Shown piece after piece: positions 1 through 7,578 of a stretch of DNA of 7,578 nucleotides. Location: contig JBJCIZ010000651.1 of NCBI GenBank assembly GCA_051294375.1, positions 19,338 through 26,915 on the forward strand. The letters are read 5' to 3'. A program made the translations under genes and the position numbers. Within the stretch, counting starts at the first letter, position 1; every line of letters begins with the position of its first letter. The stretch comes from Paraspadella gotoi (Eukaryota; Animalia; Chaetognatha). The notes beneath the pieces were generated by a model that saw only the letters and a program-made list of their open reading frames with translations, did no database searches and was not told the origin of the DNA.

Positions 1-2
1 AA

Positions 3-3000
3 GATACAAAAGGCGAAATGGAACCCCCCCCTTTACCAACCAATCCACCGCAAACCCATCCGCCCCACCCACGAAATGAACCGCCACCCAGGGATGACAC
101 NNNNNNNNNNATCAACTTCAACAGCAACAGTTACATCCCAGCAGTAGTAGGAGGAGCCCCAGCGAGCTGCCTCTACGACACAGGGGCATCGATAAACACT
201 ATCCCGAAGAAGTNNNNNNNNNNNNGGTCAATGACGAGCAAAATCTACTCCGGCCCGCCACTCCGGGTATCGACAGGAAATGGAAACGTCGTCATCCAAG
301 ACCGCATCAATCTCAGAGTCATGTTCCAGAATTGGATACTGGACACAACCTTCTTCATATCCCCAGACGAAGNNNNNNNNNNNNNNNNNNNNNNNNNNNN
401 NNNNNNNNNNNNNNNGCCAGCCAATGAGATGTGGATCGTCACCCCAGCCGAAAAGCAAGGTCTACAAGTTGCACACATGGCAGGGAAACCGGTCACGCAT
501 CTCTTTAAGGACAAACAGTCAGCTCTCAAAGCAGCAAGATGGCTCGCAAGAAGATGTGTTGACGAGAAANNNNNNNNNNCGCTCTACGCAGAAAGAAACG
601 AGGCGGGAAACCTCGTAGTGAGAGCAGCCAGGGTCTACTGGAAGTCGCTCGCGGAAGCAAAGTGGATCCTACAATCCAGCGACGGCGAAACGGCTTGCAC
701 AGTATCAGGCGAGCACCTAAAACAAGGGGTGGAATTGCCGGGCGAACCCGGCGAATGGGGAGAAGCGAAACTAATCGTCACAGAAGAAGCCAAGACGGAT
801 TTAAATCTTGATCCGGACTGTATCGCGAGACCGGTCCAAGCAGATTTAACGGGGGAGAGACCAAAATTACGACGGGTGCGGAAAGAAAACATACCGCCAA
901 CAAAGATTATAAAACACACACCTTCAGAGGCAGAATTGGAGGCGGTAGAAGAAGCGAGAAGAAGGAGACGCCAAAAACACGACGACAGAGGGAAAGACGA
1001 ATTCCTACGCCCGTTTAAGGAAATCGACCCATCCCTCATCGACAAAGCCCCCATAGTTTGNNNNNNNNNNTGGGAATTCAGAGACGTTTTCGGGGAATCG
1101 ATAAACGACTGCAAGGAGGGATTCCTGAACTATAGAGTCGACCTTGGATACACCACAGAAGGCTTACCAAAACCAAGGTTTGTAAATCAAGGCCCAGTGA
1201 AAAAGGCAGCCCTCAAAAGATNNNNNNNNNNNNNNNNNNNNNNNNNNNNNNNNNNNNNNNNNNNNNNNNNNNNNNNNNNNNNNNNNNNNNNNNNNNNNNN
1301 NNNNNNNNNNNNNNNNNNNNNNNNNNNNNNNNNNNNNNNNNNNNNNNNNNNNNNNNNNNNNNNNNNNNNNNNNNNNNNNNNNNNNNNNNNNNNNNNNNNN
1401 NNNNNNNNNNNNNNNNNNNNNNNNNNNNNNNNNNNNNNNNNNNNNNNNNGGCTAATCTGCGACTTATCAGCTGTAAATGATAACATCTCCACCTTCGCGA
1501 CAGAACCACAGACAATCGCCTCAATCTTAGAGGAATATAAACCTCACGAACTACAGTGTTCAGTCGACATCCTGGCATGTTTTCATCAAGTAAATCTGGC
1601 AGACAAATGCAAACCGGTAACTGCCTTCGCAGGCGCAGGACACAACTGGCACATGAACAAGCTCCCCATGGGAGGAGTAAACAGCGTAAACGTGCTGCAG
1701 GCCATCCTAGACGAGATTTTTGCAGNNNNNNNNNNNNACGTAAAGAGCTTCCTCATTTACGTCGACGACCTCATCCTGACAGCGAGATCACCCGAGGAAA
1801 TGGCAGAGCGCCTGCGAGAATTCTTGGAAATATGTAGACGAGAAAACGTCGTCTTGAAGTGGACCAAGAGCGTCCTGCTGAGGAAAGACGACATCAAAAT
1901 CCTCGGCTTTAGCATCTCGCNNNNNNNNNNNNNNNNNNNNNNNNNNNNNNNNNNNNNNNNNNNNNNNNNNNNNNNNNNNNNNNNNNNNNNNNNNNNNNNN
2001 NNNNNNNNNNNNNNNNNNNNNNNNNNNNNNNNNNNNNNNNNNNNNNNNNNNNNNNNNNNNNNNNNNNNNNNACACGCACTCACGCTGGTCGACAAGAGCA
2101 GTTTCAAGTTCGAAGGAAAGCATCGGGAGGCCCTAGAAACGCTAGTCAGTGAAATAAAAAACACTCCAGGACTAAATTTTTTAAACGATGCAAAAATAAA
2201 AAATGGAGAATACCGCATATACGCCGATGCCAGCACCAGCGCGATNNNNNNNNNNATAACGGCAACAGCAAACGGTGTAGAATATCCGTTAAGTTTCCAC
2301 TCCAAATCATTTCCAGATGAATACAAGATCAAACACATAAACATACTCGAAACATTAGCGTTCAATATGATGATCAGAAAGTTCAAAGGTTATATCTGCG
2401 GCAGACGAGTAAAATTGATCACCGATTCACAATACTTCAAAAGGGTGATGGATCTTCAACACGACAGACAACAACTACTCCCAACNNNNNNNNNNCGATG
2501 GATAACCGAAATAAGACAAGAATGCCACCCGAACGAAGTAGTACTTGTGAAGAGCGAAGACAATCCAGCCGATTTTCTCACGAGATTCACCGAACAAGGC
2601 CAGATAACTCCGCTGGACACGCCTTTCATGCCCGCTGGCTTTAACATCGAAGGCACGTACGAACCAGGTTATAGCGAGGACCCGATAAGCGGCGGCGCAT
2701 GGCCAGGCCACTTAGAACTAAGAGTCGGAGGAGCACCGNNNNNNNNNNTCGTCGCCGCCACCCTGAACATAGATGAAAAACTATTTCGAACGACTTTTTT
2801 CAACTTTGTAAGAAAAGAATTTGAAAAGAAAAAGGAAAACATAAAGAAACTTTACGGAGAACCAAAAACGAAAGACACCGACACTTTCATAAGATGCATC
2901 TCGNNNNNNNNNNGGATGCTCGGACACCCGGAACTGGAAATGCTCGCGGACATGATCGACATCCGCATCAGAATCCTTGACGAAGATGTCACTACGCCAG

Positions 3001-3773
3001 CCGGATGCAAATTTGAAAAGACATATGGAACAAACAATCAGCGAGAACTAAAGATTTTCAGGACAACAACAGGCCAAGCTTCCCTGATAGCAGATGAATC
3101 TGCAAATCTTAGAGTCGCAAAAGCCACTGAAAAGGAAAAGAAGGAGATAAAAATCATCACGAAAGACATCATCAACGATGCCATAACGGAAAAATGGTTA
3201 GGACCAAACTCAAACAAGCCATACGCTGAACGCCTCGCGCCACCACCGAAGCAGAGAAAAAAAGAGGACCTCCCAGCAAACACAACAATCATCTACGGAT
3301 CCCCGACAAACGAAACACAAAAAAAACCCGGGCCACCAGCGATGAAACCTCAAGACGAAACTAGAGAAGCAGGACCGCCGACATCTCAAATAAGACGACC
3401 CGGCGCAAGTGTCGAAGCTCAAACACCTCCACGAAGCCCCATGCCTGCAGCGCCACCTCTGACGCCGCCACCAGCCTTACCTCTTTCAACCCCATCGGGA
3501 TGGAAAACGGCNNNNNNNNNNGCGCTGCAAGAAGATGAAACAGGAGACGTCAGAACGGCGGCCCCGCCTACGGCGCGTAACCAAAACCCAGGAGCCGAAA
3601 AGGAGCGCCACCCACGAGCAAACGAGAGACGCCGAAGCGCATGGGAGACCGACGAGACGATCGAAATACCGCCAGACTCGACCACCGAAGCGTCCATCGA
3701 GATAGACGCACTCGACCTGTTGGAGGAAGAAAACCAAACCAACACAGGCGAGACAGTCACTCCTCCCCTATAA
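3..3773 (+). CDS. pol: Pol polyprotein, 5'-partial (protease, RT, RNase H, OTU-like domain, Pro-rich linker)
   Basis: Frame +3 is open from base 3 (GAT ACA AAA GGC GAA ATG), so the ATG at 18 is probably not the real start. The frame is kept across every N gap up to the TAA at 3771-3773. Confidence 0.93.
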   Translation, partial: DTKGEMEPPPLPTNPPQTHPPHPRNEPPPRDDXXXXINFNSNSYIPAVVGGAPASCLYDTGASINTIPKKXXXXXSMTSKIYSGPPLRVSTGNGNVVIQDRINLRVMFQNWILDTTFFISPDEXXXXXXXXXXXXXXXPANEMWIVTPAEKQGLQVAHMAGKPVTHLFKDKQSALKAARWLARRCVDEKXXXXLYAERNEAGNLVVRAARVYWKSLAEAKWILQSSDGETACTVSGEHLKQGVELPGEPGEWGEAKLIVTEEAKTDLNLDPDCIARPVQADLTGERPKLRRVRKENIPPTKIIKHTPSEAELEAVEEARRRRRQKHDDRGKDEFLRPFKEIDPSLIDKAPIVXXXXWEFRDVFGESINDCKEGFLNYRVDLGYTTEGLPKPRFVNQGPVKKAALKRXXXXXXXXXXXXXXXXXXXXXXXXXXXXXXXXXXXXXXXXXXXXXXXXXXXXXXXXXXXXXXXXXXXXXXXXXXXXXLICDLSAVNDNISTFATEPQTIASILEEYKPHELQCSVDILACFHQVNLADKCKPVTAFAGAGHNWHMNKLPMGGVNSVNVLQAILDEIFAXXXXXVKSFLIYVDDLILTARSPEEMAERLREFLEICRRENVVLKWTKSVLLRKDDIKILGFSISXXXXXXXXXXXXXXXXXXXXXXXXXXXXXXXXXXXXXXXXXXXXXXXXXXXHALTLVDKSSFKFEGKHREALETLVSEIKNTPGLNFLNDAKIKNGEYRIYADASTSAXXXXITATANGVEYPLSFHSKSFPDEYKIKHINILETLAFNMMIRKFKGYICGRRVKLITDSQYFKRVMDLQHDRQQLLPXXXXRWITEIRQECHPNEVVLVKSEDNPADFLTRFTEQGQITPLDTPFMPAGFNIEGTYEPGYSEDPISGGAWPGHLELRVGGAPXXXXVAATLNIDEKLFRTTFFNFVRKEFEKKKENIKKLYGEPKTKDTDTFIRCISXXXXMLGHPELEMLADMIDIRIRILDEDVTTPAGCKFEKTYGTNNQRELKIFRTTTGQASLIADESANLRVAKATEKEKKEIKIITKDIINDAITEKWLGPNSNKPYAERLAPPPKQRKKEDLPANTTIIYGSPTNETQKKPGPPAMKPQDETREAGPPTSQIRRPGASVEAQTPPRSPMPAAPPLTPPPALPLSTPSGWKTXXXXALQEDETGDVRTAAPPTARNQNPGAEKERHPRANERRRSAWETDETIEIPPDSTTEASIEIDALDLLEEENQTNTGETVTPPL
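132..415 (+). other. Retropepsin-type aspartic protease domain
   Basis: YIPAVVGGAPASCLYDTGASINTI, with the catalytic D-T-G at 177-185 and a flap-like VSTGNG. The expected ILG motif falls in the N gap 373-415. Confidence 0.92.
423..620 (+). other. Small inserted domain resembling DUF2188 (tentative)
   Basis: WIVTPAEKQGLQV...VTHLFKDKQSALKAARWLARR...LYAERNEAGNL resembles my recollection of the DUF2188 pattern HVVP..GW.V...F.TK.EA..AAR.LA...L.IH..DG.I. This is a by-eye match only. Confidence 0.35.
1071..1920 (+). other. Reverse transcriptase domain (partly masked by N)
   Basis: EFRDVF, LICDLSAVND (1452), SVDILACFHQVNL, TAF, NKLPMGGVNS, YVDD at 1758-1769, LKWTKS, and the primer-grip-like IKILGFSIS. 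Confidence 0.97.
2208..2585 (+). other. RNase H domain (Ty3/Gypsy type)
   Basis: IYADAS (D at 2226), PLSFHSK, NILETLA (E at 2349), LITDSQ (D at 2424) and NPADFLTR (D at 2571) give a complete D-E-D-D set. Confidence 0.95.
2709..3095 (+). other. OTU-like cysteine protease fold domain, possibly catalytically inactive
   Basis: LRVGGAPxxx(F/L/I/V)VAATL sits at the Cys-loop position, with the key codons masked by N at 2739-2748. A helical block follows, then MLGHPELEMLADMIDIRIRILD (cf. OTU WGGxxELxALA...xIxI), then TYG..ELKIFRTTTGQASLI (cf. YG..IxLxY...HYxxL). About 125 aa, consistent with OTU size. Confidence 0.6.
3237..3770 (+). other. Low-complexity Pro/Thr/Glu-rich linker within Pol
   Basis: PPPKQRKK...QTPPRSPMPAAPPLTPPPALPLSTPS...acidic ETDETIEIPPDSTTEASIEIDALDLLEEE, about 180 aa. 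Confidence 0.8.
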
Positions 3774-4200
3774 GCTCAAGCTGAAGTAAAGAAAATGGTC
3801 AAAACGAAGACGAAGCAACATCAATCGATTAAAAAACCAATTTACAAAAAATCACGGCGCCATGGGATTTAAAGGCGCATTGATGGTCAACGACAAAGAA
3901 GGCTCGTGCTCCAAACGCCAGAGCCAAATGCTTGGCTCTGAAGTGAACAAACGCGGATATTAAAGAACCATGTATATTTCTAGAGACGATATAACTGGCG
4001 TCATCGGTTACAAAATAACACGCGAACGACTCGAATCGTGTGCCTCAAAGAAAAACCTTGAGAGACGTAGTGAAAAAAAATTCACGAGAAACTGGGCACC
4101 CAGGCCGCGATCCGGACAGCGTACCTCGTATCGCAGTACCGTTGCAAGCCCAGAAAATGGTGCGCACCGTTGCGGGATATCGTACTCACGTGCGACCTCG
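3774..4200 (+). pseudogene. Frameshift-disrupted Pol segment including the integrase HHCC zinc finger
   Basis: The motif is split across frames: IHEKL (H at 4083, frame +3), GHPGRD (H at 4097, frame +2), DIVLTCDL (C at 4191, frame +3), then QKNDRRD from 4201 in frame +1. The second Cys codon appears to be lost at about 4200. Confidence 0.75.
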
Positions 4201-5041
4201 CAGAAGAACGACAGACGAGATGCACTAAAACGAAACAGATCCGACATCCGCGACCCATCCGCCCTAACGCCGTGGGAATCGCTATGCATAGACGTCATGC
4301 ATCTTCCCACCAGCAGCGGCATCAGCCATGTAGTTGTCGCGTCCGATAACGCCTCCGCCTACACGTGGGCATTACCCATCCGCAGAGCAGACGCGCAAAA
4401 CATCATAACAGCCCTCGATAAAAACATTTTTCTATTACATGGAAATTACCTCGAAATAAACTTTGATGGCGCTACATCACTAAACGGTGAGGAAATGCGA
4501 AGCTTTCTCGACCTCCTCGACACAAGCGGACGAAGGACCCTAGTCTCANNNNNNNNNNGCAACAGAGCCGAGAGGGACATCGGCCGAATCAGACAGGCAC
4601 TGAGAAAGGCAATTGACGACGACGCAACGGCCTGGTCAAAGAAACTGCCTCACATACTACTCACCCTCAATGCCACGCCCATAACAGGATGGAAAACGGA
4701 CATGAGCCCACACGAACTACAATTCGGACACAAACCCAGACTGGTCGAGGCCCCGGATGAAGAAACTTATGAATATCTATCTGACTATGCAAAACTAAGA
4801 GCTGACAGGCAGGAAGAAGCGCAGCATAAAATCGCCGAACAGCGCAGAGTCAGAAATAGAACAGCAAAAAGAGTAAACCGGTTCCGTGACCCAAAAAAGC
4901 TGGCCGTGGGAGACCAAGTATACGTGAGGCGCGACTTGATCCGCACAGGAGCCGCGCCAGCCGCAAATAAAATGAAAACTGTGTACACAGGCCCACACGA
5001 AATCCTAGAAATAAAAGGAAACCATTTTATCGTCGAGATAG
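4201..5041 (+). CDS. Integrase catalytic core and C-terminal GPY-type module (3' end lost in N gap)
   Basis: PWESLCIDVMHLP (D at 4291), VVASDNASAY, INFDGA (D at 4465), NRAER (E at 4570), WSKKLPHILLTLNATP, SPHELQFG, LAVGDQVYVR and KMKTVYTGPHEILEI. Confidence 0.95.
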
Positions 5042-5493
5042 NNNNNNNNNNNNNNNNNNNNNNNNNNNNNNNNNNNNNNNNNNNNNNNNNNNNNNNNNNN
5101 NNNNNNNNNNNNNNNNNNNNNNNNNNNNNNNNNNNNNNNNNNNNNNNNNNNNNNNNNNNNNNNNNNNNNNNNNNNNNNNNNNNNNNNNNNNNNNNNNNNN
5201 NNNNNNNNNNNNNNNNNNNNNNNNNNNNNNNNNNNNNNNNNNNNNNNNNNNNNNNNNNNNNNNNNNNNNNNNNNNNNNNNNNNNNNNNNNNNNNNNNNNN
5301 NNNNNNNNNNNNNNNNNNNNNNNNNNNNNNNNNNNNNNNNNNNNNNNNNNNNNNNNNNNNNNNNNNNNNNNNNNNNNNNNNNNNNNNNNNNNNNNNNNNN
5401 NNNNNNNNNNNNNNNNNNNNNNNNNNNNNNNNNNNNNNNNNNNNNNNNNNNNNNNNNNNNNNNNNNNNNNNNNNNNNNNNNNNNNNNNNNNNN

Positions 5494-7020
5494 AGCAGGG
5501 TTCTTTATAACCGTATTGCAGTTACAAGCATTTCGCCCCTGCAGGTGGGAAAATATTTCAGATATGATCGATGTATGAAAGATCGTCTGCCAGAAGGCGG
5601 GGAACTTTGTGCGTCGTACGCGGCCCTATACGCGCATTCTTGAAAGATCAAAATCACGAGAGAAGAAGACAGCACAGAGTTACGGGTAGAGTAGGAGGGC
5701 GTTCGCGCTGCGGGAGACCGATTTGATGTCGTCTGTGTGTTACTTGAGCTTCAGAGACTTAGTATATAATATTGAATGACAATGAGAGGAAGTCAAAGTC
5801 GAGTAATTAAACGCGGAAAAGTAGTTCGCCTTTGTTCCATACGTTATCTTTGGCTTGTACTTTCTTTTAGTTTGAAAATTCAGTTGCAACGCGATCGCGC
5901 CCTGACTAACCGGAGTGAATGCGATGGTCGGCGATGTTGGTTTTCGAGGGGCGGGGGTAAGCCCCGTTGCTAAAGAGCTTAAATCACAAGTTGCTTCCTT
6001 TGTTGATGTACGCTCTCTTGACATGAATCCCGAAGTCTTCAGTACAAAATGAATAACGTTTCTGCTTTTCCGGCAGATTTCTTGACAGCCGTTCGAGGGT
6101 TGGCCGACGCATAGAGTGCATATTGCGTAGATGTCTAGCCGAAGAGAAGTACTCTTTTTTGTCCAGCAATTTCCTGCGTTCTTTTTCTCGAATTAATTCT
6201 CAGAGGATATATCTGCACTTCAATGGTATTTGCCTTTGTATGGCAGGTACCGACAGTACCAGAGTTCACTCTCAGTACATGATTCGATCCTGCTTACGCA
6301 GCCAAAACCGGGGAGTCGTTCATCACTCGCAGCCAGCTTTCGTCGTGAAGACCGTCCTTCGAGACGCGTAGCGAGAGCCGCGTCTGACAATTCTGCGGCG
6401 CCTTCCACGCTGAGGCGGGAAAGAGTAACCAAAAGCACACTGAGCTAGGTCATGGTCGCAATGCTTCGCGTGTCTCGCATCCCTCCGCCAGTCTCAAGAG
6501 TTTTAGAGTCGTCTGCTATCGAAATCAAGAGGAATCAACATAGCAGATGAAAGGAGAAGGTTCGCACCCATTTTGCATCTCTTTATCTAGTTGATATCAG
6601 TACGGAAATTCACACATTCACTACTGTTCAGCAGTAGCCCTAGAACGTCATTTGTGCCAATGTGTGGTTATAATGTTATCGCCCAGCTTCCTTCACATCT
6701 CGATGGGGACATAGTATTCCCTGCTTTGGTTCCGCTCACGTTCTCTCGATGGGCAGGCTACTCATGCGGTACACCTTTTCTTTTTGTCGTGTAGTCCAGG
6801 CACATTTCTCTCCGCGGTTACGAAGAAATGATCGACCTGACGCATGTTTGGGTATGGGTCATGTCCATCTTCACCTATCAATCCCGTGCTCTCCCGCTTG
6901 GCACCACGGTTAAGCTTCGCAGCCTTTCGCCTCGTGTTAGCTCGTCGCTCCGGACAAAAGATGATCTCCCCTCTCGCTCTACTCCTTCTACAGTTACCTC
7001 TAACGAGCCACGTGCACTCG
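5494..7020. other. Compositionally distinct segment with no convincing coding capacity (insertion, flanking DNA or misjoin)
   Basis: The A>>T skew of the element disappears: line 4801-4860 has 24 A and 5 T, while line 6781-6840 has 13 A and 19 T. Only short ORFs without recognisable motifs occur on either strand. Confidence 0.6.
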
Positions 7021-7022
7021 CC

Positions 7023-7578
7023 CTTACGAGAGATACAAAAAACTGTTGGCAGGACCTACCCATCAGCTACCGAGGCAGAGCCGCGTACCGACACGCCATT
7101 TATCATCACGTGATCGGAACATCATACCAAACGCCCTGCGACCCGCCGCCCATCTATAAAATGAACGGCGAATACCGAGACGCGAAAGGACGCCCGTTCA
7201 AAAACTTTAAATCACTAACTACGACTATCCCCAACAAAGACGAACAAGTAACAACCGAAATCGACTTGTACGACGACGTCGGAAAATTCATGACTACACT
7301 ATAATAACACAGGCGAGGCTCATGATTTCACACGAGGATGGGAGAAATCACCGCCGGATCACCGGCCTCCTTCTTCAGGGACGTCCTAGGGGAAACGAAG
7401 TTAACAAAATGGTGGACCAGCCTCACGCGTACCGCCCCCATCATCGCCGCGGTCACCGCAGCATTGGTAGCCATCTTGTGCCTCAGCTGCTGCGGATACT
7501 GCTGCTGCAAGCTATGCGTGCGCTGCGCGAATAGAGAAATCGAGGCTGCAATAGACAATCTGGACGCCATGATCGCAG
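7023..7578 (+). CDS. env: Envelope-like glycoprotein, C-terminal fragment (chuvirus G / herpes gB-like), locally disrupted and open at the window end
   Basis: Frame +3 reads RDTKNCWQDLPISYRGRAAYRHAIYHHVIGTSYQTPCDPPPIYKMNGEY.... After stops at 7302, 7305 and 7323 the same frame resumes with MGEITAGSPASFFRDVLGETKLTKWWTSLTRTAPIIAAVTAALVAILCLSCCGYCCCKLCVRCANREIEAAIDNLDAMIA, which contains a hydrophobic helix (7434-7484) and a Cys cluster. It lies downstream of pol, as expected for env. Confidence 0.75.

Follow-up and report, generated by a model that had tools for sequence, protein, structure and literature searches.

A stretch of 7,578 nucleotides from the chaetognath Paraspadella gotoi (GenBank assembly GCA_051294375.1, contig JBJCIZ010000651.1, positions 19,338 to 26,915 of the forward strand), referred to here as the window, carries on its plus strand a pol region in the Ty3/Gypsy order of protease (PR), reverse transcriptase (RT), RNase H (RH) and integrase (IN), followed by the tail of an envelope (env) gene, as judged from Pfam and PDB profile matches (Table 1). 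The 5' edge of the window lies inside pol and its 3' edge inside env, 988 of the 7,578 bases are N, and no gag, long terminal repeat (LTR) or primer site, and no long direct repeat, was found within it. In the copy as recorded both the pol and the env frames are broken. The interpretation favoured here, to which we attach a probability of roughly 0.58, is that the window holds a single copy, riddled with errors, of a Ty3/Gypsy-type retroelement that is deeply diverged and present in multiple copies; its Pol has a predicted and likely dead OTU fold fixed between RH and IN, and the element is likely to carry a chuvirus/gB-type (class III) env downstream.

Table 1. Features of the window (positions count from its first base)
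Feature	Position	Strand	Details
Pol frame 1	3..3773	+	5'-open, 1256 codons: Pro-rich start, PR, insert, RT, RH, OTU-like domain, Pro-rich linker
Aspartic protease	111..371	+	Pfam Asp_protease_2 E 1.2e-4; DTG at 177
PR-RT insert	417..1220	+	~270 codons; coding predicted, kept as protein
Reverse transcriptase core	1452..1920	+	Pfam RVT_1 E 1.1e-15; YVDD at 1758
Gypsy-type RNase H	2118..2585	+	Pfam RT_RNaseH E 4e-8, RT_RNaseH_2 E 5e-7; D/E/D/D residues present
OTU-fold domain, likely catalytically dead	2712..3110	+	Pfam OTU E 0.026; Pro at 2736 (inferred Cys position), Gln at 3075 (inferred His position)
Pro/Thr/Glu-rich linker, likely disordered	3240..3770	+	31 Pro in 177 residues
Broken stretch, linker to IN core	3733..4260	+	Stop at 3773, frame changes; indel-rich against other copies
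Integrase core and C-terminal GPH/SH3-like part	4261..5041	+	Core at 4276-5019; Pfam rve E 1e-5; D 4291, D 4465, E 4570
Unreadable stretch	5494..7016	+	Where most of the env ectodomain is expected; short islands match family contigs in order
Env ectodomain, C-terminal part	7017..7301	+	95 codons; Pfam PF24664 (Monjiviricetes fusion) E 3.5e-5
Env membrane-proximal region, transmembrane helix, Cys-rich cytoplasmic tail	7326..7577	+	84 codons, 3'-open

The order PR-RT-RH-IN is common to BEL/Pao elements and is therefore insufficient by itself to place the element in the Metaviridae. However, the RNase H of the window matches PF17917 and PF17919, the same profiles being found in 32 of the 32 distant relatives scanned, the BEL/Pao profile PF05380 (Peptidase_A17) has no match in Pol at E up to 1, and the nearest solved RTs are 8r0s and the Ty3 entries 4ol8 and 7q5b (E ~1e-13), so that a Gypsy-like assignment of the predicted Pol is supported. 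The top PDB match of IN is the Ty3 Gag-Pol (E 2.5e-9), and the C-terminus of IN has GPH at 4990, a variant of GPF/Y, inside a weak SH3_Tf2-1 match (E 0.08). Taken with the DTG and YVDD motifs, the acidic residues of RH and the D-D-E triad of IN, the RT, RNase H and Ty3 integrase matches bear out the Gypsy-type PR-RT-RH-IN that a preliminary description, made from the letters of the window, had proposed.

The pol stretch is present in nine sequencing runs of one organism, from three studies, and no RNA dataset is among the runs listed with it. In two of the runs 418 and 541 contig records matched the window, and contigs from eight runs align to it as several variants per place, at identities from <90 to 100%. 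At least 40 of 636 differences between the copies were listed, and the following counts rest on those listed and exclude listed places inside broken stretches: differences fell at third codon positions in 26 of 26 cases in frame 3-3773, and in 10 of 10 in the PR-RT insert, which lies in that frame; for the IN core the proportion was 7 of 10, and for the env ectodomain (7017-7301) it was 11 of 13. Read from these differences, the window represents a multi-copy element family under purifying selection. A word-index search recovered only distant Pols, 19-30% identical, and a full HMMER search a dozen short unnamed metagenome fragments at 35-74% identity. A FastTree analysis covered 154 unnamed rows, made up of the window, 7 family fragments and those 146 of 169 proteins that had >250 aligned positions; the eight family rows are set off from all others by a single branch with SH support of 100 and have a long stem. 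Long alignments to proteins outside the family reach 20-24% identity at best, and the sister grouping of P0066 may be a long-branch artefact. Searches of viral and metagenome contigs yielded no relatives with flanking DNA. What is supported is a deeply diverged Gypsy-like family, set apart within a tree of unnamed rows, and the candidate new lineage previously suggested is supported to the extent of that divergence.

The bridge from the end of RH to the IN core is ~558 codons long in the window, where 33 fetched Pols have a median of 147 residues, and it contains an OTU-like domain and a Pro-rich linker. Pfam OTU matches five of seven family sequences, as whole sequences or as the domain, at E 0.0012-0.16, the best being P0166 and all being below the cut-off. 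The OTU-like stretch is common to six JGI proteins at 29-39% identity, and it lies in frame after RNase H in the window and in P0166, P0028 and P0170; in addition, a 2404-base contig from another study spans 662-3133 and so joins the PR-RT insert, RT, RH and the OTU-like domain in another copy. A fold model of P0165, made from a 7-row alignment, had a mean predicted local distance difference test score (pLDDT) of 55, with a core at 70-80, and a predicted template-modelling score of 0.52. When this model was submitted to Foldseek the top 11 rows were all OTU domains (best E 2.7e-3), and when it was compared with 48,161 chains by VIA-align the top 29 rows were all OTU, the best having a Z of 6.6 and a root mean square deviation of 3.6 over 118 aligned residues, whilst the first non-OTU row had a Z of 3.0. 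The second Atlas match of the domain was a cluster with OTU on 19% of its members (score 0.92). The structural model thus supports the prediction that the domain folds as an OTU, and both of the Pol insertions in the preliminary description, as well as its OTU-like module, were recovered. Among 170 fetched proteins no distant Pol matched the family profile at E <0.3, and none of these Pols carries the domain. Other queries were less productive: a single-sequence fold of the OTU stretch of the window was uninformative (pLDDT 36), and an Atlas query with an unbroken part of the window gave only leads <0.9. The nearest look-alikes of P0165 by Atlas language-model features and in BFVD are giant DNA virus proteins, unannotated or OTU-like, which are a lead only and no evidence of a donor.

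It is doubtful that such a domain could act as a deubiquitinase. The catalytic Cys, which in the OTU consensus lies at the start of the first helix, would fall on a position occupied by Pro in 6 of 8 family sequences and by Leu in 2 of 8, and at the inferred His loop the 3 of 3 covering rows read Ser, Gln and Ser, with no His across 17 columns. The Trp-Gly-Gly loop that is conserved in OTUs is also altered in the family domain. Catalysis by OTU enzymes depends on a Cys placed close to a His and to an Asp (PMC4654579). Because the Cys and His positions appear replaced in every covering family member, the domain is probably a pseudo-deubiquitinase; the possible ubiquitin-pathway modulator proposed earlier is retained only as a non-catalytic possibility.

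Downstream of Pol, the predicted env is represented by the two readable pieces at 7017-7301 and 7326-7577, separated by a frame break at 7293-7340. The first matches PF24664 with 22.4 bits against a cut-off of 27, at profile positions 390-456 of 653, and the second has a transmembrane helix at 7440-7496 with a hydropathy of 2.5 over 19 residues. If the name of the profile is a guide, the protein would be a class III fusion protein of the chuvirus type, and a chuvirus/gB-like env remnant is likely on these sequence features. Directly after the transmembrane helix there is a Cys-rich tail (7480-7530), which we take to be a likely palmitoylation site. The membrane-anchored open reading frame (ORF) that had been described is accordingly confirmed as a tail with its transmembrane helix, and not as a single ORF. 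Its chuvirus/gB-like character is likewise upheld for the remnant by the weak PF24664 match, and its novelty is not, since gB/chuvirus env on a Gypsy pol is already published (PMC13524379). The strand skew, said to be the same as that of pol, is comparable for 7017-7578 (AT skew +0.26, against +0.34 to +0.36 in pol) and is reversed for the intervening stretch at 5494-7016 (-0.09).

That intervening stretch cannot be read as a gene. Its longest stop-free plus frame, of 104 codons, is reached by one in three of 300 shuffles, and a Pfam search in six frames gave no match. At least 13 contig records begin matching at exactly 7017, and three contigs that are identical to the window over 276 bases from 7017 nevertheless have upstream of it 51-109 bases that differ. 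The alignment over an island at 6646-6764 contains 16 gaps but only 4 substitutions, and one contig joins the islands 5516-5541, 6157-6183 and 6337-6357 in order. At 5495-5541, 48 bases matching family contigs encode a hydrophobic stretch in one plus frame, which is possibly, as a guess, part of an env signal peptide. A comparable break occurs within pol, where RH and the OTU-like domain are in a different frame from IN, the two being split by the stop at 3773 and the frame changes at ~3733-4260; Pol is accordingly interrupted in this copy. Among the contigs listed, those identical to the window end at 3732 and one over 3606-3874 has 17 gaps, and a 1055-base contig spans the stop at 3773. The abrupt change from identity to indels fits an unevenly corrected long read, whereas decay would be expected to be uniform and rich in substitutions, and we infer that sequencing noise left uncorrected in this record, and not decay, accounts for most of the breakage at ~3733-4260, 5542-7016 and 7293-7340. 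Real decay of the broken stretches was judged unlikely, as the identity to other copies falls abruptly from 100% to indel-rich sequence, and an inversion or a minus-strand gene in 5494-7016 was rejected, there being no six-frame Pfam match and no strand-change joint.

A number of points weigh against the interpretation as a whole. The model of P0165 is of moderate confidence, there was no Foldseek match in the PDB at E 0.001, a Z of 6.6 is middling, and searches of the PDB by sequence and by profile with the OTU stretch found no OTU. The Cys and His positions were placed by means of an OTU consensus and a predicted helix start and not by residue-level superposition, the window reads N at the four codons just after the Pro, and in P0028 a Cys stands two places ahead of the Pro position. 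As regards env, its identity is drawn from one sub-cut-off profile match of 65 residues, nothing convincing was found for the fragment in the PDB, PHROG or NCBIfam or by a homologue search among longer proteins, the last being weak evidence, and in the membrane part only 6 of 13 listed differences are at third positions, a bias that is not significant. Simple noise does not account for the reversed AT skew at 5494-7016, and no contig bridges pol and env among the contigs listed, so that the linkage, for which the preliminary description had asked for intact copies or long reads, is seen as adjoining features in the window only. Finally, CG3251, an OTU protein of Drosophila that is inactive, failed to bind ubiquitin chains (PMC4654579).

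This last observation also favours the view that the dead OTU fold has nothing to do with ubiquitin and serves as a structural spacer, or as a partner surface for RH, IN or Gag, in the manner of the mini- and pseudo-RNase H that other errantiviruses have in this bridge. The apparent replacement of both catalytic positions and the altered Trp-Gly-Gly loop are consistent with it. The RH-IN bridge is moreover known to host variable non-catalytic domains (PMC13524379). However, Pfam still recognises the fold in five of seven family sequences, which suggests constraint on OTU-like surfaces, and transposons of unrelated kinds repeatedly carry OTU and Ulp1 domains (PMC2836005). A pure spacer is considered an unlikely outcome, albeit one that deserves to be taken seriously.

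A further alternative is that the env tail comes from a separate repeat, either another element or an endogenous chuvirus-like fragment, that is nested in or mis-joined to pol, with 5494-7016 being a foreign or non-coding spacer. The spacer is kept under consideration because the reversed skew of that stretch is unexplained; the stretch is also without coding signal, no contig among those listed carries pol and env together, and fragments of chuvirus-like glycoproteins frequently lie next to incomplete Gypsy copies, capture being unproven (PMC10084718). Against this, the env tail is on the same strand as pol, its position and the gap of ~500 codons fit a GAG-POL-ENV arrangement and agree with the first 390 positions of the fusion family profile being missing, and one contig joins three islands of the stretch in order. 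In addition, the depth of the env tail tracks that of pol over four runs, a weak indication as depth is not copy number, and the env variants are under purifying selection as those of pol are. A separate origin of the tail is improbable.

In another reading, an invariant His at 2925 (HPE; 6 of 6 covering rows) and an invariant Cys at 3006 (GCK; 5 of 5) would stand in for the canonical pair and make the domain a working protease with a rewired active site. Their conservation in a domain otherwise ~35% identical to that of the window speaks for it. Against it, both residues lie off the inferred canonical OTU positions, the Cys loop has a pLDDT <50, and the invariance means little where five of the rows resemble one another closely (54-72% identity). 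This reading is very unlikely.

If the element behaves as is usual for the Metaviridae, its Pol would be cut by PR inside a virus-like particle, RT and RH would build a DNA copy that IN would insert, and Env would let the particles fuse with other cells. The OTU domain may stem from a single capture of a deubiquitinase, of host or of viral origin, with the Cys/His pair lost early, and may since have been kept as a protein-binding module that would travel with RH or IN into the particle. In that event it would most likely bind ubiquitin, or a ubiquitin-like tag, where this is attached to Pol, to Gag or to a host factor, and leave it uncleaved, thereby shielding or steering the target. Nairoviruses and giant viruses carry anti-ubiquitin devices into infected cells. 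A bolder proposal, that this is a deep and hitherto undescribed enveloped LTR lineage with a captured OTU fixed inside Pol and rebuilt, in which either the invariant His and Cys at their non-canonical places constitute a novel active site or the dead fold is a ubiquitin trap, and that it carries an anti-ubiquitin device of its own into infected cells, has to be regarded as speculative and improbable.

A number of known systems share part of this architecture. Chary and Hayashi (eLife 2026, PMC13524379) describe gB-type env on Ty3/gypsy elements across metazoans, as abundant as the F-type, and recovered 114 gypsy elements with the chuvirus-like glycoprotein of a mosquito BEL/Pao element as bait. 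Like their HSV/gB-type ancient errantiviruses, the element of the window has a Gypsy-order pol followed by a membrane-anchored, likely chuvirus/gB-like env, is multi-copy and has a variable domain in the RH-IN bridge. By their description the bridge classes among 1512 elements are mini and pseudo-RNase H, with 5 labelled 'Other', whereas the bridge of the window has an OTU fold and a Pro-rich linker over ~558 codons; a word search for 'OTU' in the text and 7 supplements found nothing. Anakin and the mosquito BEL-Pao elements (as cited in PMC13524379, PMC12440569 and PMC10084718) also place a chuvirus-like env on an LTR retrotransposon, but their Pol is that of the Belpaoviridae, in contrast to the Gypsy-type RH and IN of the window and its lack of Peptidase_A17. 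Divergent Gypsy-like elements with env are known as Burro/GYPSM1 from a planarian (PMC6431247) and Tor from Oikopleura (PMC4402516). Tor4b has a spacer between pol and env. Burro carries ubiquitin-related cargo, of SUMO-like/MATH type, and its env is inserted in frame, after gag and ahead of pol; the text searched does not mention an OTU for Burro or Tor. Troyka is without env and without GPF/Y (PMC12440569), unlike the window with its env tail and GPH, and OTU is unmentioned for it, as it is in the paper on Jingchuvirales endogenous viral elements (PMC10084718), in the parts available.

OTU domains themselves have been reported from Ginger1 (Bao et al. 2010, PMC2836005), from Helentrons (Arkhipova and Yushenova 2019, PMC6431247) and from one non-LTR ORF2 (PMC13405545). 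In Ginger1 and Helentrons an OTU-like domain is fused to a transposition protein, which in Ginger1 is a Gypsy-like integrase with GPY/F, but both are DNA transposons and have no RT, no RH and no env, and the OTU of Ginger1 is C-terminal to the integrase whilst that of the window is N-terminal to it and apparently without catalytic residues. OTU folds in which the triad is not intact are represented by the Drosophila proteins Otu and CG3251 and human FAM105A (Louis et al. 2015, PMC4654579); all are encoded by cellular genes, and the Drosophila proteins have only a Cys to Ser change with His and Asp kept, whereas in the window family the Cys and His positions both appear replaced. No LTR-element Pol with an OTU was found in the full-text literature searched, Repbase, GyDB and most subscription journals being outside that scope, and the 'OTU' of PMC6875170 proved to be operational taxonomic unit and not the domain.

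With gB/chuvirus env on Gypsy pol already published, the novelty that remains is a family without a named relative found above ~25% identity over RT-RH, with a conserved pseudo-OTU in the RH-IN bridge that appears undescribed, the basis being one error-ridden copy and fragments. In the literature found, the OTU domains of published transposons belong to DNA transposons and one non-LTR element and not to the Pol of an LTR element. Should the domain bind ubiquitin, it would offer a small, expressible handle on the older idea that transposons exploit the ubiquitin system (PMC2836005), and it would be a natural example of a captured enzyme retained purely for binding.

Further parts of Pol are worth describing. 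The PR-RT insert had no convincing match in Pfam, PHROG, NCBIfam or the PDB; judged by where it lies it may, as a guess, be a dUTPase-like remnant (compare PMC6431247). At 4074-4210, in a frame other than that of the IN core, there are spaced His, Trp and Cys residues without a Pfam match. This spacing presumably resembles an integrase zinc finger. The RNase H, otherwise Gypsy-type, terminates in NPADFLTR (2562-2585), which is more like the end motif of BEL/Pao elements than like that typical of Gypsy.

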